The notes under the pieces: generated by a model
Seen by the model: only the letters and a program-made list of their open reading frames with translations
Told to the model about the DNA's origin: nothing
Database searches by the model: none
Shown here: positions 16,677 to 33,534 of the stretch, in pieces
Layout of the letters: each line of letters opens with the position of its first letter
Position numbering within the stretch: the first letter of the stretch is position 1
Source of the DNA: Bacteroidales bacterium
GTDB taxonomy: Bacteria; Bacteroidota; Bacteroidia; Bacteroidales; WCHB1-69
Direction of reading: 5' to 3'
Assembly (NCBI GenBank): GCA_017525245.1
Contig: JAFXTE010000035.1
Location: forward strand, 2,497-66,496
Length of the DNA: 64,000 nucleotides
Program-made: the position numbers and the translations under genes

Positions 16677-16682
16677 CCGCCG

Positions 16683-18185: not shown

Positions 18186-18249
18186 TTATGGCGGTTTGGT
18201 GGGAAAGTTTTTATTTTGCGGCTGGAAAGTTATATATATAATAAATGTA

Positions 18250-18906: not shown

Positions 18907-18926
18907 TAACATAAAATGATTAAAAT

Positions 18927-19778
18927 ATGAAAAACTTAAGTTACATTTTATTGACATTGTCGTTGTTGTTGACCTTTACGAGCTGCAACCAAAAGGAGAA
19001 AAAAATAGCGAAAATTATTGACAGGATTACCGAGAAACAAATGGCTGATATCAATGAAATTATTGCAGCCACCTTCGACCTTAATGCCGATAGTGTTGAT
19101 TTTGGATACGGGATTCGCCAAGACACACTATATTTCATAGATTACAATAAATTTTCACTTGAAGATCGTGATATAGACGTGCAAAAAAAATTCTTGTTAG
19201 CAGCATTATGTAGTGAATCACCCGACACAAAAGAACTATTTGCACAAATTGCCGATGTCCCAGCCGTATTACAGTTCATATATGTTGACACCATAGGGCA
19301 TACAATTTATCTTCCGATTGATATAAATAGTTCTGAACTAAAAGAATCCCTTTCAAAAGAATACACGCCACAAGACGTGCTTAATTTATACATAGATTTG
19401 ACAAATGACACGAAAGATAGTGTAACTTGTTCAATTGAAGATAACTATTTTGTGATTAGTGTTTTTGATGAACATACAGATGTGCGTTTGCTGGTTGATT
19501 CAATTAAAACAGCCACCTTAAATGAAGATGAAGATTTATTCGATTTTTTTAATTGGGATAAAATTGAAGACAAAATGTCTGAAGGTTTTCAAAAGGAGAC
19601 GAAGGAGTTAGGTGCAGAAATCTTAATCAATATTTATAAACACCAACCGTATCTATTTAGAGAATTAGTAAAAGCAAATCTCGGATTTGAGTTTAGATTG
19701 TTGGATGATGTAACAGGAAATGGGTTCTTCTGGAAATGTAAAAACAGTGATTTAAAGGAAATTGGGAACAATAAATGA
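18927..19778 (+). CDS. Hypothetical lipoprotein
   Basis: Lipobox LLLTFTSC. 283 aa. 20-nt gap to the upstream gene. Confidence 0.6.
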   Translation: MKNLSYILLTLSLLLTFTSCNQKEKKIAKIIDRITEKQMADINEIIAATFDLNADSVDFGYGIRQDTLYFIDYNKFSLEDRDIDVQKKFLLAALCSESPDTKELFAQIADVPAVLQFIYVDTIGHTIYLPIDINSSELKESLSKEYTPQDVLNLYIDLTNDTKDSVTCSIEDNYFVISVFDEHTDVRLLVDSIKTATLNEDEDLFDFFNWDKIEDKMSEGFQKETKELGAEILINIYKHQPYLFRELVKANLGFEFRLLDDVTGNGFFWKCKNSDLKEIGNNK

Positions 19779-19933
19779 TAAAAGTTGTTATGGGTATACA
19801 AGTATATCATGGTGCAACCAATTTGTTCAGCAACATTCTACTTACCATTGATGGAAGACCGACCATTGAGAAACTTGTATCGGAATATTGTGCCTTCAAA
19901 GCTATTAAGACAGTCTTATAAAATGAGAATATT

Positions 19934-21064
19934 ATGAACACTAACTCCACTGATCCAAATGTGAAATACTCGGCAATACGGGTATATAGCAACACGCAAA
20001 ACAGAATGGCACTCGGCATTCTGCACGCGTACCTGAAAATGTTTCCGCAAACCACGTTGAAAGACTTGTGCAAAGCGTTTCCTGAAAAGTTGAACCCAGA
20101 TTCCGGCATGAAACAACTGTTCATCCCCATAGAAAAGATGGTGGATGAGCCGAAATGGCAAGACTATTTCAGGGAAGACGAAGAACTGCTCTGTATGAGT
20201 GACGGTTCAAAAGTAGCTGTCGCCTCCCGGTGGTCTAGTGCAAGTCTGGAACGTTTGTCCGACCACGCCAAACAATTCGGGATTGAGCTGGCAAATTTCG
20301 AATTCGGTGAAAAGTATGACAAGTGCGGCTTCCGTCTTGAATGTGTGGCTGAAGGAAAAAAAGTTGAACCTCAAGAGAAAAAGCAAGAGGAGGCAAAAGC
20401 CCAAGTCCAGACCCCGGTTCCTCCAATTCCTCCGAAGGAACAAACATCGTCAGATAAGGACAAATCAAGTAATAATAAGAAAAAAGAGACGAAAATGGAA
20501 AAGAGCAACGAAAAAGATGATGAAACCAAGACACATATCCCGTGGTGGATGTGGCTGCTGTTGCTACTAATGGCAGGCGCGGCTGTAGGCGCTTTCTTCT
20601 TGGGCCGCCACACCAAAGAGGCCGAAATCCAAGTACAAGAGGTGGAAGTCGAAGTCCCCTACGAAGTGGAGGTAGAAAAAGAGGTGCTGATCCACGACAC
20701 TGTCACGGTAACGGTTTTCAAGGAAAAGATTGAGGAAATCGAGAAGAACTTCAATGCCGCCAAGTTCAAATCCGGCAAGGCCGATCTTAACGATGACGCG
20801 AAATTTGTGTTGCACGACTTGGTGAAGATTCTGGAGAAACAGCCGGATGTCAGATTGAAGATTGTGGGCCACACTTCCGAAGAGGGCAGTCCTTCATTCA
20901 ACCAGAAGCTTTCCGAGAAGCGGGCCAAGGCAGTGGTGGACTTCTTGGTCGCCCGCGGCATCAACCCCGACCGCCTGGAATACGAGGGCAAGGGCAGCAG
21001 TGAACCGCTTGAAGCAGGCAACAACGAAGTGAACAGAAGAACACAAATCATTGTATTACAATAA
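19934..21064 (+). CDS. OmpA/MotB-domain protein: novel N-terminal cytoplasmic domain, K/E-rich linker, TM, coiled region, peptidoglycan-binding C-terminal domain
   Basis: C-terminal FKSGKADL...LKIVGHTSEEGSPSFNQKLSEKRAKAVVDFL...NRRTQI OmpA-like motif. TM WWMWLLLLLMAGAAVGAFFLG. Confidence 0.75.
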   Translation: MNTNSTDPNVKYSAIRVYSNTQNRMALGILHAYLKMFPQTTLKDLCKAFPEKLNPDSGMKQLFIPIEKMVDEPKWQDYFREDEELLCMSDGSKVAVASRWSSASLERLSDHAKQFGIELANFEFGEKYDKCGFRLECVAEGKKVEPQEKKQEEAKAQVQTPVPPIPPKEQTSSDKDKSSNNKKKETKMEKSNEKDDETKTHIPWWMWLLLLLMAGAAVGAFFLGRHTKEAEIQVQEVEVEVPYEVEVEKEVLIHDTVTVTVFKEKIEEIEKNFNAAKFKSGKADLNDDAKFVLHDLVKILEKQPDVRLKIVGHTSEEGSPSFNQKLSEKRAKAVVDFLVARGINPDRLEYEGKGSSEPLEAGNNEVNRRTQIIVLQ

Positions 21065-21098
21065 ATCAACAATATTATTCACTTAAAAAAATTATATC

Positions 21099-21371
21099 AT
21101 GGACGAGAAAAAAATTATTGTCATGTCAGAAAGCATCGTAAATGCAATTGTAGACATCAGCATGGGCAGATCCAAGTTTTCCCTCACAAACACTGTCCTC
21201 AAAAAATTATCCAACAATCCCGCTTTGTTTGAGAATGTGAGAAACTGCTATATCGAATATTTGGGAACAATCGAGGACAAAATTGACACTACGATGGAAG
21301 TCAAGCGCTTGTCTGATTTCCGCTATGAGATTGTGGACATTTACGAAAAAGCCGTGGGTGCCCAAGATTAA
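21099..21371 (+). CDS. Hypothetical small protein (90 aa)
   Basis: ORF 34 nt downstream of the OmpA-like gene; no family recognised. Confidence 0.5.
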   Translation: MDEKKIIVMSESIVNAIVDISMGRSKFSLTNTVLKKLSNNPALFENVRNCYIEYLGTIEDKIDTTMEVKRLSDFRYEIVDIYEKAVGAQD

Positions 21372-21438
21372 CATTTTATTTTGGTGAGTCAAGGTTGTCG
21401 CATTGATACCTCGACTCTTTTCATTAATTATAAAGATT

Positions 21439-22029
21439 ATGAGAAAGATCATTTACGTCATAACAGTGTTGGCAATGCTGTTGAATGTTTCGTGCGAGAA
21501 AATCTCGGATATGAAACTGTTTAAGAAAGAGACCTTACAAGATAGGTTTGACAAAAAGATGCCCGAACTCAAGAGCATGTCTGAATTGGGTTGCGTAGAA
21601 TACACGGTTTCCAAAGTTATAATACCAGAAGGGACGAAGGACTCCAAATGGTATGGCACACGCACTATAGCTTATAGTTGCGTTGCTCATATTAAAGCGG
21701 GTATTAATATGAGTAAAATCAGGGCAAACATTGATGAAGAAAAAAAATCAATAGATCTGATATTGCCAAAACCTTCGCTTATTGGAAATCAAATAGATAT
21801 GCCAATGGAAAAAATCAAAGTGATTTACGAAAAATCAACAGGAGTTCGTGCTAAATATACTAATGAAGAACGCCTTGAAATCAAGAAAAAGGGAGAAGCC
21901 AAAATCAAAGAAGAAATACCCAAATTAGGCATATACGAAACAGCTGAAAAAAATGCCGAGGCTTTTTTCAGAACGCTGTTGGTTGAAATGGGATTTAGAG
22001 AGAGTGGAATTAACATTAAATTTGAATAG
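21439..22029 (+). CDS. DUF4230-like membrane-anchored/lipoprotein
   Basis: Start trimmed to MRKIIYVITVLAMLLNVSC. ELGCVEYTV...AHIKAGINM pattern is typical of DUF4230. Confidence 0.65.
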   Translation: MRKIIYVITVLAMLLNVSCEKISDMKLFKKETLQDRFDKKMPELKSMSELGCVEYTVSKVIIPEGTKDSKWYGTRTIAYSCVAHIKAGINMSKIRANIDEEKKSIDLILPKPSLIGNQIDMPMEKIKVIYEKSTGVRAKYTNEERLEIKKKGEAKIKEEIPKLGIYETAEKNAEAFFRTLLVEMGFRESGINIKFE

Positions 22030-22031
22030 TT

Positions 22032-22586
22032 ATGAAAAATTTTATTATAGCGCTTATTGTTGTGGCCGTATTAGGAGGAGCCGGTTTTTATGCTTATAAG
22101 TCTGGCCATTTGGATAAATTCTTCAATGGTTCAATAAAAGATACGCCGACAGTGATTGAGAGTATAAAAAACATCTCCGAACTTACAACTGCCTGCTACT
22201 ACGAAGAAATAATTCAAAGTGAACCAATCAGGAGATCTGATTCTCTTTTTGTGAAAATCGAAGGCTCGGTTAGGGCTGGATTCAAACTTGACAATCTCAC
22301 AAATGATAATATTTCAATAGAGGGAGACTCTTTGATATCAATTATAATACCAGAAGCCCAAATTTTTGATGTCATCGTCAACCCATCGAATGTTACTATT
22401 ATTGAAGGAGAAAAAAACTCTAGTGAAAAAATAATGAACAGAGCTGTTGCTAAAGCTAAGAAACGGGTTGAAAAAGATGCTATTAATGATGGTATTTTGG
22501 AAAAAGCCACGGAGTCTGGCAAAAAACAGTTGACGGAATTGTTCAGAACTCTAGGATTCAAAGAAGTTTATGTGGACTTTGAGTAA
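22032..22586 (+). CDS. DUF4230-like membrane-anchored protein
   Basis: N-terminal TM, then ISELTTACYYEE...GSVRAGFKLD pattern. 2-nt gap to the paralogous upstream gene. Confidence 0.65.
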   Translation: MKNFIIALIVVAVLGGAGFYAYKSGHLDKFFNGSIKDTPTVIESIKNISELTTACYYEEIIQSEPIRRSDSLFVKIEGSVRAGFKLDNLTNDNISIEGDSLISIIIPEAQIFDVIVNPSNVTIIEGEKNSSEKIMNRAVAKAKKRVEKDAINDGILEKATESGKKQLTELFRTLGFKEVYVDFE

Positions 22587-22605
22587 CCAATATTATTGAA
22601 AATAG

Positions 22606-22638
22606 CTGGAAGATACCGAAAATCCAGAATTGAGTAGG
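22606..22638 (+). repeat. 33-nt leader motif, copy A (diverged)
   Basis: ctggaagataccgaaaatccagaattgagtagg, 23 nt before the ATG at 22662. Confidence 0.7.
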
Positions 22639-22661
22639 CTAATTACAAACAAACAGAAGAC

Positions 22662-22862
22662 ATGCATCTTTATAGACTGACACCGAGGATAACTGCAATT
22701 TCAAAATTTCCCCAAGGGTTTATTTTGCAAGTCATTTCCCGCCAAAGACTTTCTCCAACACCCGATGAGGTGAAAGAAGCTTTGATACGTGTCGGTTTCA
22801 CTGATCCTGATGCGTTAAGAATGTTGACCAGCTACTACTGGAACATAGAGAAGATATCGTAA
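22662..22862 (+). CDS. Hypothetical small protein (66 aa), cassette A
   Basis: ORF preceded by the leader motif and followed by a hairpin at 22871-22900. Confidence 0.5.
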   Translation: MHLYRLTPRITAISKFPQGFILQVISRQRLSPTPDEVKEALIRVGFTDPDALRMLTSYYWNIEKIS

Positions 22863-22870
22863 TTTGAACA

Positions 22871-22900
22871 AGCCATACATTCTTTTTTGAGTGTATGGCT
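22871..22900 (+). terminator. Hairpin with T-rich tail closing cassette A
   Basis: agccataca-ttcttttttgag-tgtatggct followed by ttgatttt. Confidence 0.5.
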
Positions 22901-22918
22901 TTGATTTTGTAACACATT

Positions 22919-22951
22919 GCGGAGGAAGCCGAAAATCCGGAAAAGAGTAGG
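22919..22951 (+). repeat. 33-nt leader motif, copy B
   Basis: gcggaggaagccgaaaatccggaaaagagtagg, 20 nt before the ATG at 22972. Confidence 0.85.
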
Positions 22952-22971
22952 CAACTTAAAATCGTATTATC

Positions 22972-23211
22972 ATGAGATATAAACTTTTAGTAACAGGAAA
23001 GGGATTGTCTGCATTGCAGTGGATAGAAAAGCCCGACGGGAGCACTGTCAGAAGTTCCAGTGAAGAATGGAGCTTTGTGGTTGAATCGAACGAATCAAAC
23101 GGTATTTCCGCTGATGATTTCTTGAAGCAGACTGGTTGTAAATGGAGAAGCGGCTTCAGCAGGCCTTCTAAAATCACAAATGCCAACGGTTGGACGGTAA
23201 AACAATTATGA
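22972..23211 (+). CDS. Hypothetical small protein (79 aa), cassette B gene 1
   Basis: ORF after leader motif B; no family recognised. Confidence 0.5.
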   Translation: MRYKLLVTGKGLSALQWIEKPDGSTVRSSSEEWSFVVESNESNGISADDFLKQTGCKWRSGFSRPSKITNANGWTVKQL

Positions 23212-23218
23212 GACTTCA

Positions 23219-23578
23219 ATGAGTACAATCCTCGAAAACACTGGGACGTGTGGCAAGTTGAATGTCCAGCTTTTAGAGTTGTTGAAAAAGCATGGCGGGA
23301 TATTTCGCATTGATGAAGACGAGCAGTTCACAACGTGGGCCGTCACGCTCTTCGACAAAGATGGTGGTGTCCCGCTGTCGTTGTCGTTGGTCGGATCAGT
23401 CGCGGAAATCGCGGTGAAGGACATGGGTTGGGGTTACGAGGTGGTGGAAATCACCCGTTGCGAAGACTTTGCCGAAAGAAACGATGACTACGTTTTTATT
23501 TTGGCCGCCGTCGATGGAAACAAAGTGACGATTGACGGGGTCAAGGCGGTAATACAGCAGTTGAAATCTGCAAGATGA
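23219..23578 (+). CDS. Hypothetical protein (119 aa), cassette B gene 2
   Basis: ORF 7 nt after the preceding stop; no family recognised. Confidence 0.5.
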   Translation: MSTILENTGTCGKLNVQLLELLKKHGGIFRIDEDEQFTTWAVTLFDKDGGVPLSLSLVGSVAEIAVKDMGWGYEVVEITRCEDFAERNDDYVFILAAVDGNKVTIDGVKAVIQQLKSAR

Positions 23579-23597
23579 TGGTAAATTCCCAATTATT

Positions 23598-23918
23598 ATG
23601 ACCGCCCTCCTCTGGCTCCTCCAAAAAATCGCGCCCATCACGAATGTCATCGGGCTGTTCGTTCTGTTGTCGGAACTCGCCTACGGCGACATCGGCATCG
23701 GGACGCACGTGTATGTTCTCGCGGGCGGGCTTGCGCTCGCGGGGTTCGTCCTCGGGTTCACGAACTGGGCGTTGGACGTGCCCCCGAAATTCTTCTGGAC
23801 CAAATCGCGGGTGCAACTCTTCGACAACCGCGTGGGCAACGCCTTCGGTTACGCCGTCATCTTCTTCCTGCTGCCGTTCTTCGTGGCGGGGGTGGCGGTT
23901 GTGGTGGGGAAATGGTGA
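23598..23918 (+). CDS. Small integral membrane protein (106 aa, about 3 TM helices)
   Basis: Hydrophobic ORF. Its 3' about 155 nt recur as partial copies at four downstream sites. Confidence 0.6.
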   Translation: MTALLWLLQKIAPITNVIGLFVLLSELAYGDIGIGTHVYVLAGGLALAGFVLGFTNWALDVPPKFFWTKSRVQLFDNRVGNAFGYAVIFFLLPFFVAGVAVVVGKW

Positions 23919-23922
23919 TGGA
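23764..23922 (+). repeat. Gene-3'-end repeat R1 (the intact, in-gene copy)
   Basis: actgggcgttggacgtgcccccgaaattcttctggaccaaatcgcgggtgcaactcttcgacaaccgcgtgggcaacgcc...ggggaaatggtgatgga. Confidence 0.85.
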
Positions 23923-24032
23923 CCGTTAGTGCCACCATTCTGAAAGCCCCCTGACTATAAAAAACAATAGGGTAAACGCCTTAAATCTCGCTTTATTTTC
24001 GAGATTTGAGGCGTTTACTTCTGATATTTTAT

Positions 24033-24040
24033 TATTTTTG
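24033..24040 (+). promoter_or_regulatory. -7 promoter box TATTTTTG
   Basis: TAnnTTTG match 20 nt upstream of the ATG at 24060. Confidence 0.5.
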
Positions 24041-24059
24041 CAGTCCAAATTATTCATGT

Positions 24060-25508
24060 ATGACAAAGGCAAATATAATCGGAAGAGAAAGAGAATTAGC
24101 TGAATTACAACGTAGTATGGATTCAGACAGGTCTGAATTTGTCATCGTATATGGTCGGCGGCGCGTCGGCAAGACTTTTTTGGTGGACAATTTCTTCCAT
24201 TATCAATACGATTTTTCGTACGTAGGTGGGCATCGACTTACAAAAAACAAGCAGCTACGCAATTTCGCCAAAGCATTGAAAAAGTACGCCAACATGTCCA
24301 AGCAACCCAAATTCGCTGATTGGGACGATGCCTTTGACGCACTGGAGTCTTTTCTTGACACATTGCCGTCAGAAAAACGGAAAGTGGTTTTCTTTGACGA
24401 GATGCCGTGGATTGACACCCCGCATTCGGAATTTGTAGATGCCTTGGAGATGTTTTGGAACGGTTGGGCCTCGCGGCGGAACGATATCGTTTTCGTTGCC
24501 AGCGGATCGTCAACCTCTTGGATGGTGGACAAGCTTGTTGACAATCAAGGTGGATTGCATGGTCGTATCACAAACAACATCTATGTGCGTCCCTTTACGC
24601 TGCACGAAGTGGAGTTGTACTTGCAGAGTCGCGGAGCTGCGTGGGACCGCTATCAGATATTGCAGGCGTACATGACCATCGGGGGGATACCTTTCTATTA
24701 CAGCCTGCTGAATGGGAAAGAGAGCCTCGTTCAAAATATTGACAGACTGTTTTTCCGGAAAAATGGTGAGCTACAAACCGAATTTGAAGAGCTATACACC
24801 GCATTGTTCAGCAATTCCGAGAAATACACTGCCGTTGTGAAACTGCTGAATGGCAAACGAGAAGGGATGACCCGTGAAGAGATCATGTCGGCGACCAAAA
24901 TGGATAGCACCATGCTGACCAAAGTGCTTCGGAATCTCGAACGTTGTGACTTCGTTATCCGATACTCGCAGTTCGGCAACAAAAAAAAGGGGAGCATCTT
25001 TCGGCTGGTGGATTTCTACACTCTTTTTTACTACCGTTTTCTGGAAAAATTCAACTCTCAAGATGAACAGTGGTGGAGTCACAATTTCCAATCCCACGCA
25101 GTTGAATCCTGGCAAGGACTGGCATTTGAACTCCTGTGTCTCATGCACTTGAACCAGATTAAGGCAAAGTTAGGCATTTCGGGTATAGCCACCGAGGCCT
25201 CTTCGTGGAGGTATGTGCCAGGCAAGGGCAAGGCTGCGGAAAATGTGGAGAAAGGTGCACAAATAGACCTGCTGATTGACAGAGCGGACCGCACTATCAA
25301 TCTTTGTGAGATGAAATTCTCGACCACCCCGTTCCGAATCAGCGATGCTTACGAGCAATCGCTACGAGCCCGGATGGAGGTCTTCCGCACCCAAGTCAAA
25401 ACCACAAAATCACTTGTAAATACGTTTGTGACTACGTTCGGTGTTGCCGACGGTGTACACCGAAGCATTGTCCATAGCGAGGTTACTATGGACGACCTGT
25501 TCGCGTAA
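24060..25508 (+). CDS. ATP-binding protein (archaeal-ATPase/DUF234-type AAA)
   Basis: Start trimmed to MTKANIIGRERELAEL. Walker A GRRRVGKT and Walker B VVFFDEMPW. 482 aa. Confidence 0.8.
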   Translation: MTKANIIGRERELAELQRSMDSDRSEFVIVYGRRRVGKTFLVDNFFHYQYDFSYVGGHRLTKNKQLRNFAKALKKYANMSKQPKFADWDDAFDALESFLDTLPSEKRKVVFFDEMPWIDTPHSEFVDALEMFWNGWASRRNDIVFVASGSSTSWMVDKLVDNQGGLHGRITNNIYVRPFTLHEVELYLQSRGAAWDRYQILQAYMTIGGIPFYYSLLNGKESLVQNIDRLFFRKNGELQTEFEELYTALFSNSEKYTAVVKLLNGKREGMTREEIMSATKMDSTMLTKVLRNLERCDFVIRYSQFGNKKKGSIFRLVDFYTLFYYRFLEKFNSQDEQWWSHNFQSHAVESWQGLAFELLCLMHLNQIKAKLGISGIATEASSWRYVPGKGKAAENVEKGAQIDLLIDRADRTINLCEMKFSTTPFRISDAYEQSLRARMEVFRTQVKTTKSLVNTFVTTFGVADGVHRSIVHSEVTMDDLFA

Positions 25509-25509
25509 G

Positions 25510-25539
25510 GCAACTCTTCGACAACCGCGTGGGAAACGC
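25510..25539 (+). repeat. Gene-3'-end repeat R2 (30-nt fragment)
   Basis: gcaactcttcgacaaccgcgtgggaaacgc starts 1 nt after the ATPase stop codon. Confidence 0.75.
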
Positions 25540-25641
25540 ACCACAGAATCCGCGCTGTTATAGAGATGCAAAAATTCACGTTTCTACAGGTAGGGAAACA
25601 ATTTAGTATTCACTTTTTTTGTGCTCCAATCAAAAAAATCC

Positions 25642-25649
25642 TACTTTTG
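25642..25649 (+). promoter_or_regulatory. -7 promoter box TACTTTTG
   Basis: TAnnTTTG match about 40 nt upstream of leader motif copy C. This places the motif inside the 5' UTR. Confidence 0.5.
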
Positions 25650-25689
25650 CACTTTCAAAAGGAATGAGAAATTCTACAACAATACAGTT

Positions 25690-25722
25690 ACGGAGGAAAC
25701 CGAAAATCCGGAATAGAGTAGG
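25690..25722 (+). repeat. 33-nt leader motif, copy C
   Basis: acggaggaaaccgaaaatccggaatagagtagg, 25 nt before the ATG at 25748. Confidence 0.85.
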
Positions 25723-25747
25723 TAAACACAATTAACACCTTACAATT

Positions 25748-26515
25748 ATGCCAAATTTAAGTCGACTTGACAAAAATGCATTATCAAATATCATAAGAGG
25801 ATTTGCGAATAAAATCTTCCAAAGTGAAGCCCAATTCCAATTTGATTTGGCTTGGGAACTACAACAGCAAAGTTGGGGAAATGCCAAACTTGAGGATATG
25901 AGGATGATGGTTAACAAAAGTAATGGAATGATAGGTAAGTGCTATACAGATATTGTGCTGGAACAAGAGGACTATAGTGTTGCTATTGAATTAAAATATA
26001 AGACAGCAGAGTATCATCCAAAGGGAGGTAGTTATCCCATTTTATTCGGTCATGATGCCGTAGATGAGGGCCGCTACGACTATCTATGGGATGTCCATCG
26101 AATTGAATTGCTTACAGGAAAAGGCAACAAGACAGAGATGAATGGCGTAGTGAAAGTGCTAAAAGGATGCAACAAAGGATTTGCTGTGCTTTTGACAAAC
26201 GAGAAACAATATTGGGATAAAAAGTACATAATACCGGGAAAAGCTTCTCAATCTATTGATAATCAGTTTCGCATAGGGTGCATCAAAGGGAAGTGTGGAA
26301 ATTTGTTCGGTAAAGATTTGGATTGGAAACGCGATGCCGTTAAATATCCTAATAACTATAATAATTATCCCGCAACTGTTTTGACAAAAACAAATAAACC
26401 AAAATTTCGTGCACAGCCAATTCATTTAGACCAAGCCTATAAATATAAGTGGGAGGATTATCATAATACACAACAACCGAACGGCGATTTTAAATTCGTA
26501 ATTATAGAAGTGTAG
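25748..26515 (+). CDS. PD-(D/E)xK-like protein, paralogue P2
   Basis: YTDIVLEQEDYSVAIELKYK (D..ExK), GRYDYLWDVHRIELL and GFAVLLTNE blocks, matched block-for-block in the 28214 protein. Confidence 0.65.
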   Translation: MPNLSRLDKNALSNIIRGFANKIFQSEAQFQFDLAWELQQQSWGNAKLEDMRMMVNKSNGMIGKCYTDIVLEQEDYSVAIELKYKTAEYHPKGGSYPILFGHDAVDEGRYDYLWDVHRIELLTGKGNKTEMNGVVKVLKGCNKGFAVLLTNEKQYWDKKYIIPGKASQSIDNQFRIGCIKGKCGNLFGKDLDWKRDAVKYPNNYNNYPATVLTKTNKPKFRAQPIHLDQAYKYKWEDYHNTQQPNGDFKFVIIEV

Positions 26516-26537
26516 CATAGAAAATTATCAAACAAAT

Positions 26538-26700
26538 CATGTCCAACACCCTTTCCAAATCCCGCTACACCGCATTCTACCAGAATGAAAGAAATGCCAC
26601 CCGATGAATATAAGAGAGCCCGGGAATCCCTGCTGAAATTCTGCGACTGGACACTTGGGTGATGGTGAAGATTTGGGAGAAGTTGGTGGTGATGAGTTAG
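26538..26700 (+). pseudogene. Remnant of a DUF2779-like gene (N-terminal about 15 codons fused to frameshifted C-terminal about 30 codons)
   Basis: MSNTLSKSRYTAFYQ... then a stop. Other frames read ...LLKFCDWTLG and MVKIWEKLV, resembling the N- and C-termini I recall for DUF2779 proteins. Confidence 0.4.
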
Positions 26701-26726
26701 AAAGTAACGAATAGCAACAATTTATA

Positions 26727-26759
26727 ACGGAGAAAACCGAAAATCCGGAAAAGAGTAGG
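26727..26759 (+). repeat. 33-nt leader motif, copy D
   Basis: acggagaaaaccgaaaatccggaaaagagtagg, 23 nt before the ATG at 26783. Confidence 0.85.
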
Positions 26760-26782
26760 TTAAATGGTTTAATTTCAAGGAT

Positions 26783-27703
26783 ATGGTAATAAAGAATGTA
26801 GATGTCAGTGATGATTTGGTTAAAAAGGTGGAAAAATGTATTGATTTTATTAAGGGAACCATAGAAAGTGGGACTTCAGGAAAGAGTGGGACATCAGGAT
26901 TCCATTATCCTAATCCCATAATTAAAGTGAATTCCAAAATAACACCTGATATACCTTATTTGCTTCTGCATAGAGATGTGCAGGTTAATGTGAGTTTTCA
27001 AAATGTTTCATGGTTTATCCATTCAGTGCCTATCTATCTGAAAAATAAAATAGAATCCAAAGAATTAGGACTCTATGTCACGGGGGAATATGATGTCAAG
27101 TATATTCTACTTGATGTGGAAAAAATCGATAAAGAAGTATCATCTGACCATGAACGGTTCAAAATGTTACTAACAACGGTGCTCATACATGAACTGATGC
27201 ATGCTGTTTTGGATCTGTCCAACCATAAAGATTATTATAATAATTCCAGTACGAAGAACCAGTCTAGTTCCTGCCCTTTTGCTCTTGTACATAAACACAT
27301 GGACCGCCTGGAACTTAATAAGGATTATAAAGACTGGCGTGAGGAAGCGTATGCCAATGCCCTGACACTACATCTTATTGAAATGTCTGGCAAAAAGAAA
27401 TTAATCGAATATGCGAGAAATTTTATGATTAATCAAGATGAACAATATGCAGTGGGAGCAAGTTTGTCAAAAATCTCATGTATTTATGAACAAACTGATG
27501 ATTATCTTAAAGAAAAAAATCTAAAGGAGAATAATCTGACCAAGGTCTATGATATCGATAAATGGAATAAATTGCGGAGAGACTGGGTGAGTTGTGTCAA
27601 GCATATAAAGAACAATATAGAAAACAAAGTAGATCTAATGTCTCAGCTAGAACAATTGGAAAATCAAATTCGAGCATTTGTTAGATCTCAACATAAAAGA
27701 TAG
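26783..27703 (+). CDS. Zincin-like protein (HExxH plus downstream Glu)
   Basis: LIHELMHAVLD, with EEAYANAL about 55 residues later. C-terminal coiled-coil-like tail. No specific family recognised. Confidence 0.6.
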   Translation: MVIKNVDVSDDLVKKVEKCIDFIKGTIESGTSGKSGTSGFHYPNPIIKVNSKITPDIPYLLLHRDVQVNVSFQNVSWFIHSVPIYLKNKIESKELGLYVTGEYDVKYILLDVEKIDKEVSSDHERFKMLLTTVLIHELMHAVLDLSNHKDYYNNSSTKNQSSSCPFALVHKHMDRLELNKDYKDWREEAYANALTLHLIEMSGKKKLIEYARNFMINQDEQYAVGASLSKISCIYEQTDDYLKEKNLKENNLTKVYDIDKWNKLRRDWVSCVKHIKNNIENKVDLMSQLEQLENQIRAFVRSQHKR

Positions 27704-27792
27704 GTCTCATTACATTTGCTCATAATGAGATACGCGCTTCCAGCACGAGATCGTGGGAAAAACTATATTGCCGTTAAACGAAAGGGTATCTA

Positions 27793-27825
27793 ATGGTCTA
27801 AGCCGAAAATCAACATAAAAGTAGG
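27793..27825 (+). repeat. 33-nt leader motif, copy E (degenerate, no ORF behind it)
   Basis: atggtctaagccgaaaatcaacataaaagtagg, followed by a hairpin at 27850-27883 instead of a gene. Confidence 0.6.
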
Positions 27826-27849
27826 TGTATAATACATACAAGATAGCGA

Positions 27850-27883
27850 ACAAGGTTCTGCCAACAAATTGGCGGAACCTTGT
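27850..27883 (+). terminator. Hairpin acaaggttctgcc-N8-ggcggaaccttgt
   Basis: 13-nt arms (12 Watson-Crick pairs with one central mismatch), then tgctttc. Confidence 0.4.
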
Positions 27884-28213
27884 TGCTTTCAGTGTGTTAC
27901 AAGTGAAAAGATATCAACGTGATTTGCAAATTAAATGTATACGAATTAAGTTTCCGATGCGCTGTTGATAAATTGTTGATAACTTTTTTGTTTTTTTACA
28001 TTAAATTTTCCGCACACCACGAATATAAGAATAGATACCCATTAAATATAAAACAACCACTTTTATCGGGTACGCGTTCTTTGACATATTGATTGAGAAT
28101 AATATCGGGTAATGGTGTTGTGAACATTCCTCATTGCGCCGCAAGGGCACATAACCAATCACAATTCACAAATTTAAAAAATTATCTTAATTTTCATCAA
28201 AAACTTTAAAATC

Positions 28214-28948
28214 ATGCAAAAAACAGCTTTTACAAATCAAGTCTTAAACGACATTCATGAATTTCTGAACCAGAACACCAAAGTGTTCGCCAACGAACGC
28301 GATTTACAGATAAATCTGGCGGCTTATCTGAAATGCATCAGACAATATGATATCGAAGTGGAGTGCCACGTGTCGTCAGATATCCTGTCAAGTCTTGTCC
28401 CGCAACTCCCGTCGGAGCGATGCACTTATTACCCCTGGCTCCAAACCAACAGTGACAAACCACAGGAGATGTACGTGGATATTGTGGTGAGCAATGGAGA
28501 GGAATATGTGCCAATCGAACTAAAGTATAAAAAGAAGGAACTGAAAGGTGATGTGGTATTGTTCGGGCAGAACATGGGCGCAGGCGTCATCCTGAAGGGT
28601 GATGGTGCGCACGACTTCGGACGGTATGGTTTTTGGAGAGATGTGCGCAGAGTGGAGCTTCTCGTCAAGTCGTTCGTGAATGTCAAAAACGGCATCGTCC
28701 TTTTTGTTACCAATGACGAATCTTATAAGACGGCTTCCGTGGCGGGCACCAACAGCGAGCATTTCGCCATGGGCGACGGCACCGAAACGTATCACAAGGG
28801 CACGAACTGCTGCTGGCCGTTCAACCCGCTAGATACGGAGTCATACAAATCCTGCCCTTGCTTCAAGCTGGAGGACGAACACGATGTGAATTGGAACAAA
28901 CACACCTTCAGCGGGGTTGACTTCCATATCGCGGAGGTGATCGTGTAG
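28214..28948 (+). CDS. PD-(D/E)xK-like protein, paralogue P3
   Basis: YVDIVVSNGEEYVPIELKYK, GRYGFWRDVRRVELL and GIVLFVTNDESY blocks. Clear paralogue of 25748..26515. Confidence 0.65.
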   Translation: MQKTAFTNQVLNDIHEFLNQNTKVFANERDLQINLAAYLKCIRQYDIEVECHVSSDILSSLVPQLPSERCTYYPWLQTNSDKPQEMYVDIVVSNGEEYVPIELKYKKKELKGDVVLFGQNMGAGVILKGDGAHDFGRYGFWRDVRRVELLVKSFVNVKNGIVLFVTNDESYKTASVAGTNSEHFAMGDGTETYHKGTNCCWPFNPLDTESYKSCPCFKLEDEHDVNWNKHTFSGVDFHIAEVIV

Positions 28949-28965
28949 TAGTTTTTTCAACTGTA

Positions 28966-28998
28966 ACGGAGGAAGCCGAAAATCCGGAAAAGAGTAAG
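28966..28998 (+). repeat. 33-nt leader motif, copy F
   Basis: acggaggaagccgaaaatccggaaaagagtaag, 21 nt before the ATG at 29020. Confidence 0.85.
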
Positions 28999-29019
28999 TG
29001 GGAAAAAAACTTATTGAAA

Positions 29020-29331
29020 ATGCATATTGTTAAAATCAATCAAGGACGAGCTGATCTGTGCGATAGTAAGTTTGGCAGCTTCATTCGCACACTGGCCTCT
29101 AGAGGCGTAATTGATGCTGACATAAATGATGACGGAATCGTACTCATCACATTCGATGACGGTAGTGTAAGAATAATGAGGGAGGACAAATCTTTTATCC
29201 GAACAATACGCTCTATGAGCAATAGTCAAGCTGTGTCTGCAAGATGGAGTGGCGATGATATTGCCCTGCGTCTGGCAAATGGAAGAACGGAATTGCGAAG
29301 AGTGGGAGGAGGGTTTATCCGTAGATTCTAA
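29020..29331 (+). CDS. Hypothetical small protein (103 aa), cassette F gene 1
   Basis: The track ORF starts at TTG 29014; the first ATG is at 29020 (MHIVKINQG...). Confidence 0.5.
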   Translation: MHIVKINQGRADLCDSKFGSFIRTLASRGVIDADINDDGIVLITFDDGSVRIMREDKSFIRTIRSMSNSQAVSARWSGDDIALRLANGRTELRRVGGGFIRRF

Positions 29332-29400
29332 TCGACTTTAAATCCATTTACTCACCAGATAATAAATTCAAATAACAAATTCATTATATCACACAAAATT

Positions 29401-29724
29401 ATGGCACTCGTACATAAATATGTTCATTCTCAGGAACAGACAGAACCACAACAGTCTAAAGAAAAAACATTACCATCAGGGACAACGCAAATCGAAATCT
29501 TCTCCCATATGACAATAGCGTCAAGTTTTCTACGGGAATGGGTGAAAAATCCTAAAACAATTTATGATCTTGAACAAGAAGTCAATGATTTTCTTGTAGA
29601 AAACGAAGGCAAGATTGCCGTTAAGGATATTAAATACACCACCCAGTGTATGACAAATAAGCAGAATGAAACTAATCCTGATACAATACTTTGGACTGTA
29701 ATGATTATTTACGAAACGAAGTGA
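29401..29724 (+). CDS. Hypothetical small protein (107 aa), cassette F gene 2
   Basis: ORF; no family recognised. Confidence 0.5.
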   Translation: MALVHKYVHSQEQTEPQQSKEKTLPSGTTQIEIFSHMTIASSFLREWVKNPKTIYDLEQEVNDFLVENEGKIAVKDIKYTTQCMTNKQNETNPDTILWTVMIIYETK

Positions 29725-29726
29725 AT

Positions 29727-29756
29727 TGTAGAGACGCGCCAACGGTGCGTCTCTAC
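29727..29756. repeat. REP-like hairpin GTAGAGACG..CGTCTCTAC
   Basis: tgtagagacgcgccaacggtgcgtctctaca abuts repeat R3. Confidence 0.75.
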
Positions 29757-29840
29757 ACGCCGTCATCTTCTTCCTGCTGCCGTTCTTCGTGGCGGGGGTG
29801 GCGGTTGTGGTGGGGAAATGGTGATGGAACCCCTGACGGA
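29757..29840 (+). repeat. Gene-3'-end repeat R3 (distal half)
   Basis: acgccgtcatcttcttcctgctgccgttcttcgtggcgggggtggcggttgtggtggggaaatggtgatgga is identical to R1 over this stretch. It then continues acccctgacgg as in R4. Confidence 0.85.
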
Positions 29841-29978
29841 GGTTCAACGGGTGCGACGGAAAGCGCCCGCCATCATACCCGTAAGGGATACATATCCGCG
29901 GCAACGATTCCAGCGAATGAACCCGCCTTTACCCCCATTAGGGGTTGTATGTTTGATGAAATTTCGGAAATCGCCTAC

Positions 29979-31103
29979 TTACTTCTCAAAGAGGGCATCC
30001 GCGGTGATTATGTCTTGAAATTCAACAGAATAAGAATTCTGCTTTACTTCATTGGCCGAAATGAGGATGAGATGGATGGACTTGTCTGTCCCCGTCGCGA
30101 TTCTGAAACTGTTCCGACGGTTTTGGACTTTCTGTTCTTCCTCGGATGTCATCTCGTAGGGCTGCTTGGTGTATTTCATCTCACAAATGTCTATAATACC
30201 GTCATTGCGGTCGATGAGCAGATCAATTTGCGCACCTTTTCTTTCGAAAGTGGCGGGTTGATACCACGAGCAGACCCTGCTTATGGTGCCGAAGATACTG
30301 AGGGCTTTCTTGATTTGAGTGACGTGCAGAAGACAAACACGCTCAAAAGCGAGCCCGCACCAGTTGTAGTATAAGGGCGAACCTGTCTGACGAGACCAAA
30401 AGCACTCATCGCCGCCGCTGTTCTGCTGGATAAACCGATAATAGAACAACGTGTAAGAGTCTATCAGTTGGAAAACGGCAAATTTGGATTTAAGACCAAG
30501 GTTGTTGTATTTGCGAATAAAACCGCAGGCTTCGAGGTCTTGCAACATCTCCGAAAGACGCCCGTTATCCTGGAGATGAGCTTCCGATATGAGCTCTTCT
30601 CGGGTCATCCCGATTCGTTTATGGCCAAGCGTCTGTACAATGGTAATATAAGGGTCGGGGTTTTTGAAGAGTGACGCATACAACTCGTCAAATTCATCAT
30701 ACAGGCCGCCGTCGGGATTGAAGAAAAGGTTGTCGATGTTTTGAGAGAGGCTCAGACCGCGTTCTAATTTCGACCAGTAGAACGGAATACCACCCATAAC
30801 CATATAGCACTCCATAAGCTGCCTGCGATTCATGCCAAGTTTGCGGTGGATAGCATACTGCTCGCATTCGTGGAGGGTGAACGGCTGAAGATGAATCTTG
30901 GTGTTGACGCGGTTGTGGAGGCCTCCTTTGTTTTTGAGGATTTTCTTGATAATCCAAGATGTGGCACTGCCGCAAACGATAAGGACAACGTCCTTACGTG
31001 CCGATGCCCAACCATTCCAAAAGTTTTCGAGAGCGGGGACGAATCCGGAACGCTGAGTGTCCAGCCATGGAAGCTCATCTATAAATCCATTTCTCTTCCT
31101 ATG
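29979..31103 (-). pseudogene. 5'-truncated DUF234-type ATPase (paralogue of 24060..25508, lacking the Walker A region)
   Basis: Homology to the intact copy starts at KRNGFIDELPWLDT (compare KRKVVFFDEMPWIDT). About 115 N-terminal residues are missing. The upstream part of track ORF 29979..31382 reads through unrelated repeat sequence, and the nearest ATG is out of frame. Confidence 0.65.
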
Positions 31104-31151
31104 AACATACCGGATAAATTTTACTGAGCGCAAAAGTAGGAAAAATATTCT

Positions 31152-31198
31152 TATACTCAGCGGAAAGTGTTGAATTTTTATAGATTCCGCTGAGTATA
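31152..31198. repeat. Perfect 14-bp inverted repeat TATACTCAGCGGAA / TTCCGCTGAGTATA (19-nt spacer)
   Basis: Arms at 31152-31165 and 31185-31198, upstream of the truncated ATPase. Confidence 0.8.
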
Positions 31199-31245
31199 GG
31201 TGTTTTTTTCTTGATGGTTTTGATTTGTAACAGCTCGTAGGAGGC

Positions 31246-31445
31246 ATCCTCGGCTTCACCCACTGGGCGTTGGGCGTTCCCCCGAAACTCTTCTGGACCA
31301 AATCGCGGGTGCAACTCTTCGACAACCGCGTGGGTGACGCCCTATAGGAGACGCGCCATGGCACGTCTCTACACGCCGTCATCCTCTTCCTGCTGCCGTT
31401 CTTCGTGGCGGGGGTGGCATACGTGGTGGGGAAATGGTGATGGAA
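31246..31445 (+). repeat. Gene-3'-end repeat R4 (longest extra copy, interrupted by a REP hairpin at 31343-31372)
   Basis: atcctcggcttcacccactgggcgttgggcgttcccccgaaactcttctggaccaaatcgcgggtgcaactcttcgacaaccgcgtgggtgacgccc [REP] acgccgtcatcctcttcctgctgccgttcttcgtggcgggggtggcatacgtggtggggaaatggtgatgga. Confidence 0.85.
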
Positions 31446-31571
31446 CCCCTGACGGGGTTCTGCGGAACATCGTGGGGGACCGCACCTACAGACATGGAAC
31501 CCCTAACGGGGTTCATGGGAATGACGGAACGAACCTCGTTATCTCCGTAAGGAAATGCATATCCGTAGAAG

Positions 31572-31973
31572 CTATTTCATCGCAATATATTGCCGTATCT
31601 TTTCGACAAGCTGACGTGCCGGTTCTATTCGGGAAACAACGTCATCCTCAGACACATCGTAAGAGCAGTTGTAATCGGCACTTTCTCTCATTGATTGTAA
31701 TTGGGAATAGAAACGACCTTCTTCTACCGTAAACAATTGTGTCTTGACATAATATTGCTGAAATCTAATAGCAGCCCCTTTGTGTGTCCCTACTTCATGC
31801 CCGTCGCTGATTAACAATGCGCTTACCGCATGAAAAAGCGCATAATAAAGACGATTGGCCATGGTGCTCCAAAAGCCTGCCTGTCTCAAAATTTCCTGCT
31901 CCGCAAGAATGCTTTCAGCTTTTTCAAGTTCCAAATTGACGACAATCCGTCTGTCCTCGTCACTAAGATTCAT
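31572..31973 (-). CDS. hepT: HEPN-domain protein (toxin half of a HEPN-MNT pair)
   Basis: Track ORF trimmed to the ATG at 31973 (MNLSDEDRRIVV...). ANRLYYALFHAVSALL and MRESADY blocks. Overlaps the MNT gene by 11 nt. Confidence 0.7.
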   Translation of the reverse strand: MNLSDEDRRIVVNLELEKAESILAEQEILRQAGFWSTMANRLYYALFHAVSALLISDGHEVGTHKGAAIRFQQYYVKTQLFTVEEGRFYSQLQSMRESADYNCSYDVSEDDVVSRIEPARQLVEKIRQYIAMK

Positions 31974-32286
31974 ATAGTAATTGCTTGTCTTGTTCAACGT
32001 TATAGAAAAAAAGGGCATGAGGGCCGCCATACCACTCATCCTTCGTATAGGTGTGTACACTGAAGTACTGCCAAAGGTCAAATCCGCGTTCCATGATAGG
32101 GTATGCGTATTTGTCGAAATCATCAGCACCTTTCTTGGGTTTGTCAAGCAGTAGCAACAAGTCCCAATCGCTGTCTTGACGATGGTCTCCGCGCGCACGT
32201 GAGCCGTAAAGATACAGAGCACTTCCTTTGGGCAGCACATCTTTCGCCACCTGTTTGATACTTTCCAAAATGTTTGTTTCAGTCAT
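31963..32286 (-). CDS. mntA: Minimal nucleotidyltransferase (MNT antitoxin half)
   Basis: LYLYGSRARGDHRQDSDWDLLLL (GS..D.D NTase motif). Start trimmed to the ATG at 32286. Confidence 0.8.
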   Translation of the reverse strand: MTETNILESIKQVAKDVLPKGSALYLYGSRARGDHRQDSDWDLLLLLDKPKKGADDFDKYAYPIMERGFDLWQYFSVHTYTKDEWYGGPHALFFYNVEQDKQLLYES

Positions 32287-32437
32287 TTCGAAATTCTTTT
32301 CACGCTGCAAAAATACAATAAAATCCAATACTACATCACCGCAATAAAATCCATAACTCCCGAATCAAGCTCCCATAGCGTCCAAATCGTGACTTACTGA
32401 GCGTGCAGGATGCATACATTCCGTCTCTTCTGTGACC

Positions 32438-32525
32438 GTTCCCCCGAAACTCTTCCGGCCCCAATAGCGCGTGCAACTCTTCGACAACCGCGTGGGGAAC
32501 GCCCTCGGCTACGCCATCATCGCGA
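32438..32525 (+). repeat. Gene-3'-end repeat R5 (most diverged copy, adjacent to the tcdA promoter)
   Basis: gttcccccgaaactcttccggccccaatagcgcgtgcaactcttcgacaaccgcgtggggaacgccctcggctacgccatcatcgcg. Confidence 0.75.
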
Positions 32526-32639
32526 TTATCGAAAATTATGTTATTTTTGCGCGGCGATTGCAGGCCGGTCATGTTCAACGGACTCCGCATGGCGGCGCTG
32601 CGGCCATTGTTCGGCAAACAGAGGAGTCCGCGAAATCGC

Positions 32640-33440
32640 ATGGGCATAGAAAACGCCATATTCAACCGCATGACCCTGCTCGTCGGGGAGACAGCGATGG
32701 AACGCATCGCCAACCAACGAGTCATCGTCTTCGGCGTGGGCGGTGTCGGGAGCTGGTGCGCCGAGAGTTTGGTGCGCAACGGCATCCGCCACCTCACCAT
32801 CGTCGATAGCGACCGCGTGTGCGTCACCAACGTCAACCGGCAGCTTCAGGCCACCACCAAGACGGTGGGACAGGTCAAGGTCGAAACACTCAAGGAACGG
32901 CTGCTCGACATCAACCCGCAGGCGGAAATCAACGCCATCCAGGAAATCTACTCCGCCGAGAACACCGCGCAATTCCATCTGGAAACCTACGACTACATCA
33001 TCGACGCCATCGACAGCTTGGAGCACAAGGCACGGCTGATCCTGCACGCCACCGAATGTCCGGGCAAGTTCTACTCCGCCATGGGCGCCGCCCTCAAGAT
33101 GGACCCCACCAAGGTGTCGGTGACCGAATTCTGGAAAGTGCAGGGATGCCCGCTGGCGCGCGCCCTGCGCAAACGGTTCAAACGGATAGGCGAGTACCCG
33201 CGCAAAAAGTTCCCATGCGTCTATTCACCCGAAGTGCTGCCCAACAAAGGCACCGTGACGACCTGCGGCACCAGCGCCTGCCTCTGTCCGAAAGCCATCA
33301 TCGCGGCAGGCAACCCTGACCTCATCAACCACGAATGGTGCTCCTCCAAAGCACAAATCAACGGCACCACCTCCCACATCACCGCCATCTTCGGCTTCTC
33401 ACTCGCCGGATTGGTGATGCAGGATATCTGTGCGGAATGA
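32640..33440 (+). CDS. tcdA: tRNA threonylcarbamoyladenosine dehydratase (ThiF/E1-like)
   Basis: VIVFGVGGVGSWCAESLVRNGIRHLTIVDSDRVCVTNVNRQ Rossmann/E1 motif. Start trimmed to the ATG at 32640. Confidence 0.85.
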   Translation: MGIENAIFNRMTLLVGETAMERIANQRVIVFGVGGVGSWCAESLVRNGIRHLTIVDSDRVCVTNVNRQLQATTKTVGQVKVETLKERLLDINPQAEINAIQEIYSAENTAQFHLETYDYIIDAIDSLEHKARLILHATECPGKFYSAMGAALKMDPTKVSVTEFWKVQGCPLARALRKRFKRIGEYPRKKFPCVYSPEVLPNKGTVTTCGTSACLCPKAIIAAGNPDLINHEWCSSKAQINGTTSHITAIFGFSLAGLVMQDICAE

Positions 33441-33450
33441 TGATTTTATG

Positions 33451-33534
33451 GTAGGGGCGTATCGAATACGCCCTACATTAGGGACATTTCAAATACGCCC
33501 TATATTAGGAACGTATCGAACACGCCCTACATTA
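33451..33534 (+). repeat. Three tandem units around ATACGCCCTA(C/T)ATTA; the first forms a hairpin
   Basis: gtaggggcgtatcgaatacgccctacattagg / gacatttcaaatacgccctatattagg / aacgtatcgaacacgccctacatta. Confidence 0.7.

Follow-up and report, generated by a model that had tools for sequence, protein, structure and literature searches.

How can unrelated defence genes accumulate behind a single small gene, unit after unit, each unit closed by a piece of that gene's own 3' end, at a site where no integrase is found? This question is raised by a 64,000-nucleotide (nt) stretch of DNA from a Bacteroidales bacterium (WCHB1-69; assembly GCA_017525245.1, contig JAFXTE010000035.1, positions 2,497-66,496, forward strand), here called the window. 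In the window, an intact gene for a small membrane protein (R1) is followed by four partial copies of its 3' end (R2-R5), all on the same (plus) strand, and then by tcdA. The answer favoured here, to which a probability of roughly 0.6 is given, is that the interval between the membrane-protein gene and tcdA would be an integrase-free hotspot for defence and toxin-antitoxin modules, reshuffled by homologous recombination among the gene-end repeats. Searching the literature for the locus, or for its counterpart in Bacteroidales, returned nothing specific.

The gene-end repeats and the modules between them

Positions within the membrane-protein gene are given as q, running from q1 to q325 from the start of 23598-23922. 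An earlier reading of this stretch (the original prediction) had claimed that the 3' end of the gene recurs as four more copies in the same orientation, with R2 starting 1 nt past an ATPase stop codon and R3 identical to R1 over about 72 nt. A blastn search with 23598-23960 as the query bears this out: it finds R2-R5, with no gene-end copies elsewhere in the 64-kb window, the ATPase stop and R2 at 25508 and 25510, and R3 and R1 alike at 72 of 72 positions. A 23-mer, CAACTCTTCGACAACCGCGTGGG, is exact in R1, R2, R4, and R5, with exactly 4 occurrences in the 64 kb vs 0 expected; a 29-mer from the gene's last helix occurs 3 times, again vs 0 expected. The second variable region, at 11.5-23.7 kb with its AbiE and AAA_14 genes, showed no such duplication of gene ends. 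The product of R1 has hydrophobic stretches and no family match in Pfam or NCBIfam. Its family is narrow, comprising 80 homologues, all from uncultured Bacteroidales and mostly from rumen metagenome-assembled genomes (MAGs); the alignment of 11 full-length members contains 31 invariant columns.

The window holds four stacked units. Pfam was run on its open reading frames (ORFs) from 1 to 40 kb, and PADLOC, Rfam, and NCBIfam were used for defence profiles, RNAs, and further protein families, respectively. As had been proposed, each segment between repeats carries a different module: an intact ATPase, a block of leader-bearing cassettes, a truncated ATPase, and a HEPN-MNT pair (Table 1). The absence of an integrase, also part of the original prediction, holds for the Pfam-scanned ORFs (1-40 kb), among which there is neither an integrase nor a serine recombinase.

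Table 1. Features of the repeat array and its right flank (window positions)
Feature	Position	Strand	Remarks
R1, intact small membrane-protein gene, 106 aa	23598..23918	+	conserved left anchor of hotspot
Type-A downstream sequence	23923..24034	+	terminator-like inverted repeat; accompanies ATPase module
Module 1, intact ATPase_2/DUF234-type ATPase	24060..25508	+	Pfam ATPase_2 E = 1.1e-16
R2, fragment q216-245	25510..25539	+	29/30 identical; ATPase-module scar; 1 nt past ATPase stop at 25508
Degenerate GTAG-type REP hairpin (REP1-like)	25559..25587	+	19 nt past R2
Cassette block, five small genes	25588..29727	+	lies between R2 and R3
c255	25748-26515	+	cassette block gene
c306 (HExxH)	26783-27703	+	cassette block gene
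c244	28214-28948	+	cassette block gene
c105	29014-29331	+	cassette block gene
c107	29401-29724	+	cassette block gene
REP1 hairpin (GTAGAGACGCGCCAACGGTGCGTCTCTAC)	29728..29756	+	left junction of R3, 3 nt past c107 stop
R3, fragment q254-325	29757..29828	+	72/72 identical to R1; 3' remainder of REP1-bearing allele
REP2 array remnant, type-B downstream sequence	29826..29975	+	GGAACCCC-loop-GGGGTTC units; homologous to Y1-flanking arrays in L009 and L022
Module 3, PDC-S27-type ATPase	29979..31085	-	N-terminus lost; PADLOC profile positions 108-473 of 474
R4, fragment q152-325	31247..31444	+	with 24-nt REP1 insertion; scar of minus-strand ATPase module
REP2 hairpin units	31444..31570	+	natively follow gene at empty site
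Module 4, HEPN	31572-31970	-	Pfam HEPN E = 8.5e-11
Module 4, MNT nucleotidyltransferase	31963-32328	-	Pfam NTP_transf_2 E = 1.1e-8
R5, fragment q180-264	32437..32521	+	87% identity; diverged lineage adjoining tcdA
tcdA (ThiF family)	32538..33440	+	Pfam ThiF E = 6.3e-35; conserved right flank; core genes beyond

The same interval in related genomes

The window was compared with about 50 related loci of rumen Bacteroidales, all of them from MAGs or metagenome contigs and each with no more than 10 kb of flanking sequence. The original prediction had pointed to such a comparison, and both an empty site and different cargo between repeats of the same kind are found. At the empty site (L010), the gene is followed by ~120 nt that include two REP2 hairpins (REP, repetitive extragenic palindrome) and then by tcdA; protein identity to the window is 98% for tcdA and 99% for the ABC permease. 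Across the set, more than 10 cargo types occupy the site, and each cargo other than a Y1 transposase is followed by a gene-end fragment. They include HEPN-MNT, immediately downstream of the intact gene (L001 and L043; 98-99% protein identity to the window pair); ORF6N and then AbiEii/AbiEi (L002); two PDC-S27-type ATPases, one on the plus strand, which is that of module 1 (L003-L006, L034, and L038, after the gene, with 98-99.6% protein identity), and one on the minus strand (L011, L017, and L040); two AAA_14 ATPases (L014, L016, L019, and L044); a leucine-rich repeat (LRR) protein and a 127-aa protein, enclosed by two full-length copies of the gene (L028, L033, L035, and L049); a lipoprotein pair (L037, L038, and L046); DUF805b cassettes; and the Y1 transposase itself. 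The pattern of an intact target gene with 3'-end repeats flanking elements is thus not peculiar to the window, being present also in L001-L006, L011, L017, L034, L038, and L040.

The flanks are conserved. The left anchor is the membrane-protein gene, usually preceded by a gene called h119, and the right flank is tcdA in at least 10 loci (it is syntenic with the tcdA of the window in L007, L009, L010, L022, L028, L029, L034, and L040); in other species the right flank is HAD, DUF1015, ResB, GCV_T, or gdhA. No tyrosine or serine recombinase is found in the related loci, which were judged by Pfam annotations where these were present and otherwise by ORF lists and homology to window proteins. The sole transposases met in this search are the Y1 gene and an IS1595-like ORF lying 3.5 kb from a fragment in L045. 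(It should be noted that a variant of the window haplotype, L049 1-2518, has a sixth gene copy upstream, followed by the LRR protein of 401 aa and the 127-aa protein; here the 127-aa gene stands in place of h119 immediately before the membrane-protein gene.)

Units, scars, and natural recombinants

Each unit starts a few nt past the stop codon of the gene, with either the terminator-like type-A sequence or a REP2 array (type B), continues with a cargo of one or two genes, and ends in a partial gene 3' end. The type-A sequence also stands after the gene in L003 and after fragment f2 in L002. The point at which the fragment starts is specific to the cargo and constant between genomes, regardless of what lies to its right: q216-218 for the plus-strand ATPase, q138-152 for the minus-strand ATPase, q180 for HEPN-MNT, q134 for ORF6N, q184 for AbiE, and q174-176 for AAA_14. 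In particular, the stop codon of the plus-strand ATPase is followed by a fragment starting at q216/218 in L003, L034, and L038 too, and the minus-strand ATPase module is followed by a fragment starting within q138-152 in L011, L017, and L040. Overall, the starts range from q134 to q256 (q254 in R3), and the ends lie at q218, q245-248, q264, or q325.

Three natural haplotypes correspond to the window minus the DNA between two of its R copies. In L034, the order is ATPase, q216-264, tcdA, equivalent to R2 fused to R5; in L040 and L032, it is minus-strand ATPase, q152-257, tcdA, equivalent to R4 fused to R5; and in L001 and L043, it is gene, REP2, HEPN-MNT, fragment, equivalent to R1 fused to R4. 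Because an empty site, variable cargo, and such recombinants are all found, the reading of the locus as a product of serial accretion is supported. Of the serial insertion upstream of tcdA that had been proposed, the hotspot therefore stands; the att-like integration with a replacement end is not supported, as there is no fixed crossover.

The arrays adjoining tcdA all share one join, which runs from q253 through ACGCCGTCATC to GCGATT, and for this reason the tcdA-proximal fragment is taken to be an old, diverged lineage. R5 had been described as the most diverged copy, lying beside tcdA, and it indeed belongs to a distinct, older fragment lineage that stays next to tcdA. The 11-mer of this join is present upstream of tcdA even in genomes that have a Y1 gene or an empty site, where its neighbour is a REP2 unit cut short within the loop; likewise, the last 11 nt of R5 (ACGCCATCATC) occur upstream of tcdA in fragment-free genomes as well.

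Within the array, genes of the cassette-block type are normally found upstream of the membrane-protein gene in relatives (homologues of c244 and c107 hold this position in L010, L020, L022, and L041). Consequently, the window array reads as two haplotype units placed head to tail, and the cassette block has the look of a second haplotype's 'upstream' part. L024 (88% identity over 216 nt) and L036 both have the junction that runs from R2 through the REP and a promoter to the leader; judged by this conservation, the R2-to-cassette junction is old. A different reading, in which an insertion bounded by terminal inverted repeats divided a single copy into R2 and R3, was rejected, since the apparent repeat is part of the degenerate REP beside R2; the old junction also rules it out.

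Two observations are signs of gene conversion: R3 matches R1 completely despite its origin from a REP-bearing allele, and the fragment in L001 matches that genome's own gene at 66 of 67 positions. Identity is mosaic around the minus-strand ATPase, whose coding region is 99% identical to L011/L017, against 92% for the promoter and fragment beside it. This mosaic and the recombinant haplotypes fit a turnover of units by homologous recombination.

REP hairpins and alleles of the membrane-protein gene

Two kinds of hairpin are found in and around the repeats. REP1 is a dispersed, GTAG-tagged palindrome, GTAGAGACG...CGTCTCTAC, that starts at 29728, 31343, 38130, 55239, and 58755 in the window and also occurs at unrelated positions in L002 and L003; as a short, dispersed palindrome with a terminal GTAG, it falls within the GTAG-REP class as defined (PMC3733652). 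The hairpin that the original prediction saw as common to R3 and R4 is confirmed (29728-29756, and 31343-31372 within R4). The internal duplication in this genome that it drew from the hairpin is not upheld, because the same insertion is a widespread allele of the gene: in L009, the sole gene copy carries REP1 at the same position (q245-253), where an in-frame TAG gives an 83-aa product, and 83-aa products ending in GNAL occur in other assemblies as well (P0026 and P0040). Since the insertion recurs as an allele elsewhere, R3 and R4 derive from a common REP-bearing gene allele, R1 being REP-free. The presence of REP1 in the gene (L009 10001-10349) also means that many genomes encode only the 83-aa form, which is without the last hydrophobic segment; REP-bearing and REP-free alleles both persist in the population.

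A genome-wide REP as the source of the repeats was considered and rejected. The original prediction had held that its reading would fail if the repeats were a dispersed REP unrelated to the gene; this is true of the 24-nt hairpin only and not of the gene-end repeats, whose gene-derived sequence is present at this locus only.

The second hairpin, REP2, is linked to the Y1 transposase of the relatives. Between the gene and tcdA, a 153-aa Y1_Tnp gene with REP2 arrays on both sides is found in L007, L008, L009, L022, L023, L028, L029, L033, and L042. The REP2 units that follow R4 in the window match L010 10326-10416 and both Y1 flanks in L007, L009, and L022. There is no Y1 gene in the 64-kb window. 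The Y1 protein scores 61 bits on the NCBIfam transpos_IS200 model (cut-off 55) and 21.9 bits, below the cut-off of 80, on the REP_Tyr_transpos model for REP-associated tyrosine transposases (RAYTs). The richness of the site in REP hairpins and its occupancy by Y1 in relatives probably raise breakage and recombination there; a catalytic role for the Y1 transposase in the turnover of modules is weakly supported.

How the array may have been assembled

Taken together, these comparisons fit a two-step process. Each junction between a cargo and its fragment would have been made once, by a rare illegitimate join; candidate founding routes are microhomology or REP-hairpin joints, formed either in a tandem duplication or when foreign DNA was taken up with the help of anchoring homology. 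(There is a TCGCG microhomology at the point where R2 adjoins the ATPase stop codon.) Thereafter, the gene-end copies, which are 30-200 nt long and 80-100% identical, would serve as portable homology: RecA-type recombination and gene conversion between copies, located within one genome or on incoming DNA from relatives, could add units to the stack, exchange them, and remove them, always leaving the foremost copy of the gene intact. We infer both the homologous recombination and the illegitimate founding events from the arrangement of present-day sequences.

Several points weigh against homologous recombination among the repeats. The mechanism is deduced from comparative anatomy alone; R2, at only 30 nt, is close to the shortest length at which homologous recombination is efficient; and the case for microhomology draws on a handful of short matches. 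R5 contains the 23-mer without a mismatch, within flanks that are ~17% diverged, which has a chance of ~1-2% in the absence of conversion or constraint, and a recombinase core could be an alternative cause. Finally, with loci seen only on MAGs or metagenome contigs and within at most 10 kb of flank, a recombinase may be encoded elsewhere in the genome.

These last points lead to the rival that survives best, although it is judged unlikely: accretion at an att site. Here small integrative elements or decayed islands would have been inserted serially at the 3' end of the gene by a site-specific integrase, since lost or now acting in trans; a replacement gene end would have arrived with each element, and the repeats would be remnants of attL and attR. 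Islands in tandem at repeated gene ends include the staphylococcal cassette chromosome (SCC) and pseudo-SCC arrays at orfX/rlmH. Further precedents are the ssrA islands of Dehalococcoides (PMC3146451) and the accretion of integrative and conjugative, integrative mobilizable, and cis-mobilizable elements (ICE/IME/CIME; PMC5704250). As in the ssrA and CIME islands, successive modules lie downstream of one gene, direct repeats of the gene end bracket every module, the first copy is intact, and some modules are without a recombinase; no module starts more than a few nt from the stop codon, and four of the five copies contain the 23-mer unchanged. Such islands, however, have short, constant att cores and an integrase in at least some elements, whereas the repeats here range from 30 to >300 nt, with variable ends and with some that have no common segment. 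Thus, repeats and a restored target gene are present, but a fixed core or crossover and a local recombinase are not. Module-specific starts from q134 to q256 leave no common crossover point; the 23-mer is missing from R3, from the L011 fragment (q152-218), and from one fragment in L016 (q256-321), and has 1-2 substitutions in fragments of other genomes; the arrays of L028, L033, and L035 contain two full-length gene copies; and no integrase appears in the ~50 loci. The modules, at 1-1.7 kb with a single intact cargo, are unlike a decayed island, and the repeat segment q180-264 folds no better than its shuffles (z = -1.34). The same value led to the rejection of an attC-like or otherwise folded recombination site in q180-264.

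A doubtful proposal is that the Y1 transposase of the relatives did the work. Cuts made at REP hairpins by an IS200-like HUH transposase would allow adjacent cargo to be mobilised or captured, the site being a cassette platform served by a REPtron, that is, a REP-associated/IS200-like Y1 transposase flanked by GTAG-tagged REPs (PMC3733652). The site in relatives resembles such an element in that it holds a single Y1_Tnp between hairpin arrays (nine loci), and the window keeps hairpin remnants after R3 and R4 and has a GTAG-tagged REP inserted within gene-end copies. A REPtron-like arrangement in Bacteroidales is seen at L022 10320-11600 and also in L007, L009, L028, L029, L033, and L042. Some junctions do fall at the feet or loops of REPs: the left edge of R3 is a foot of REP1, the right end of the L001 fragment is its other foot, the join upstream of tcdA lies in a REP2 loop, and the HEPN cargo starts directly after a ...CCGTAG unit; RAYTs have been proposed to process GTAG REPs (PMC3733652). 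Most junctions between cargo and fragment, however, are away from REPs, and those next to REPs are expected by chance in a REP-dense region. The window, having no Y1 gene, contains no REPtron, and the Y1 protein passes the IS200 model but fails the curated RAYT model. As is established for this family, IS200/IS605-type transposition leaves no long duplications, and REPtrons are not known to capture cargo.

A related and comparably doubtful idea joins two claims: that the gene-end segment and REP hairpins form the acceptor site of a cassette system, and that modules without a recombinase are inserted and excised there by an enzyme acting in trans, which would be the REP-flanked Y1/HUH transposase or an unrecognised recombinase. 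Like integron arrays and clusters of attC sites lacking integron-integrases (CALINs), the locus has small, mostly promoter-carrying cassettes of unrelated function beside a fixed anchor; unlike them, it has neither IntI nor an attC-like folded site, and it lacks a fixed point of recombination. If the idea is true, Bacteroidales would have an acquisition platform that resembles an integron but relies on another enzyme chemistry.

There is very little to recommend the idea that the partial copies are kept for a function, as terminators or insulators between convergent modules or as remains of paralogous membrane genes linked to the cargo: some arrays have full-length second copies and the fragments always lie between cargo units, but the copies are variably truncated, carry frameshifts or a REP1 stop, and show no significant fold, and AbiE, HEPN-MNT, and PDC-S27 are self-contained, several on the opposite strand. 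Finally, a chimeric assembly of strain haplotypes at the repeated gene end, conceivable with 72 identical nt in R1 and R3 (long enough to confuse a short-k assembly), can be dismissed almost entirely, because the whole five-copy array recurs in the same order in six independently assembled metagenome contigs (L048-L053, the six array-bearing contigs shown of 24 c107-carrying contigs read; 99.4-99.9% identity) and because unique junctions (ATPase/R2, c107/REP1/R3) lie outside long identical sequence.

The cargo

The cargo of the hotspot is rich in defence and toxin-antitoxin genes, with two PDC-S27 matches and a PDC-S09/HEPN-MNT pair in the window and AbiEii/AbiEi and ORF6N in relatives. The module 1 ATPase matches the PADLOC phage-defence candidate PDC-S27 (E = 2.5e-197). 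The module 3 ATPase lacks ~294 nt that code for the N-terminus, including the Walker A motif; these 294 nt are present in the full-length genes of L011 and L017, to which it is otherwise 98.8-99.1% identical in nt sequence. The 5' region of this truncated minus-strand gene contains an inverted repeat (31140-31210) with 26-nt arms, 85% complementary, and a 19-nt gap; the repeat is conserved in L011 and L017, and Rfam gives only a sub-threshold chance match to it (mir-2363). The HEPN-MNT genes of module 4 (31572..32328) match PADLOC PDC-S09 and would form a toxin-antitoxin or defence pair.

In the cassette block, four of the five genes are preceded by a 35-nt leader that is the DUF805b RNA motif (Rfam RF02914), with matches inside the block at 25690, 26727, and 28966. 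Four matches in the window score 43.3-49.2 bits vs a gathering score of 35.6, and a fifth scores 31.7 bits. The copies lie at 22606-22640, 22919-22953, 25690-25724, 26727-26761, and 28966-29000, with a weaker look-alike at 27791-27827, and stand directly upstream of the small, unrelated genes h66, h79, c255, c306, and c105; the same is seen in related loci. One cis-regulatory RNA thus heads many different cassette-like genes. The DUF805b cassettes have no defence annotation; a PDB sequence search with c255 gave no match, and c255, c306, and c244 have only sub-threshold NCBIfam matches.

The surrounding region

The repeat array is only the right-hand third of a longer segment (13769-32537), from a Pkinase-LRR gene (11948-13768) to tcdA, that varies among relatives and in parts has a G+C content of 35-45% vs 52-56% in its flanks. 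Upstream in this segment, an AbiEii/AbiEi pair (14466-15954, minus strand) lies beside a 216-aa gene; homologues of the pair (~83% nt identity) lie between membrane-gene fragments in L002, L011, L020, and L025. Likewise, the AAA_14 ATPase gene at 16683-17888 has counterparts in L016 and L041 that stand between membrane-gene fragments. To judge from these homologies, the two variable regions evidently exchange modules. Two pairs of tandem 33-nt direct repeats (16594-16659 and 17926-17991) flank the AAA_14 gene in the window. Just downstream of tcdA, between convergent genes, are three tandem 27-nt palindromic units (TAGGGGCGTATCGAATACGCCCTACATTA) at 33447-33534. Candidate toxin or defence genes outside the array include a PIN-domain protein (3505-3939) and an AAA_14-DUF4143 ATPase (7252-8535).

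Relation to other hotspots and meaning of the scars

Core defence hotspots that carry no mobile-element genes have been described in Pseudomonas aeruginosa (cDHS1 and cDHS2; PMC10250203) and in E. coli (hotspot #37; PMC10121019), and homologous recombination at their flanks has been proposed as the route of exchange (PMC10250203, PMC10121019). The present locus shares with them conserved flanking genes, highly variable, defence-rich cargo, and the lack of integrase or mobility genes, and it has an empty state in L010. It differs in that those hotspots are described as scarless, whereas here every unit retains a part of the left-flank gene, and also in the very small size of its units (1-4 kb) and in its host, uncultured rumen Bacteroidales. 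The best reading is thus a scar-bearing, integrase-free defence hotspot in these bacteria.

Integrase-free defence hotspots are widely seen, and how they are assembled is acknowledged as an open question (PMC10250203). The phenomenon is unsurprising in principle. Here, however, the cargo-specific starts of the fragments allow the order and the joints of past events to be read, and the metagenomic population appears to display, step by step, the gain, loss, and reshuffling of defence modules without a dedicated recombinase. The locus also offers candidate defence cargo: the ORF6N and LRR modules, as well as the nuclease-like and HExxH genes headed by DUF805b leaders. With many sampled haplotypes and defined junctions, it provides a system in which the contribution of REP hairpins and of the Y1 transposase can be tested; scars and sampled recombinants together make the assembly of a hotspot readable and testable.

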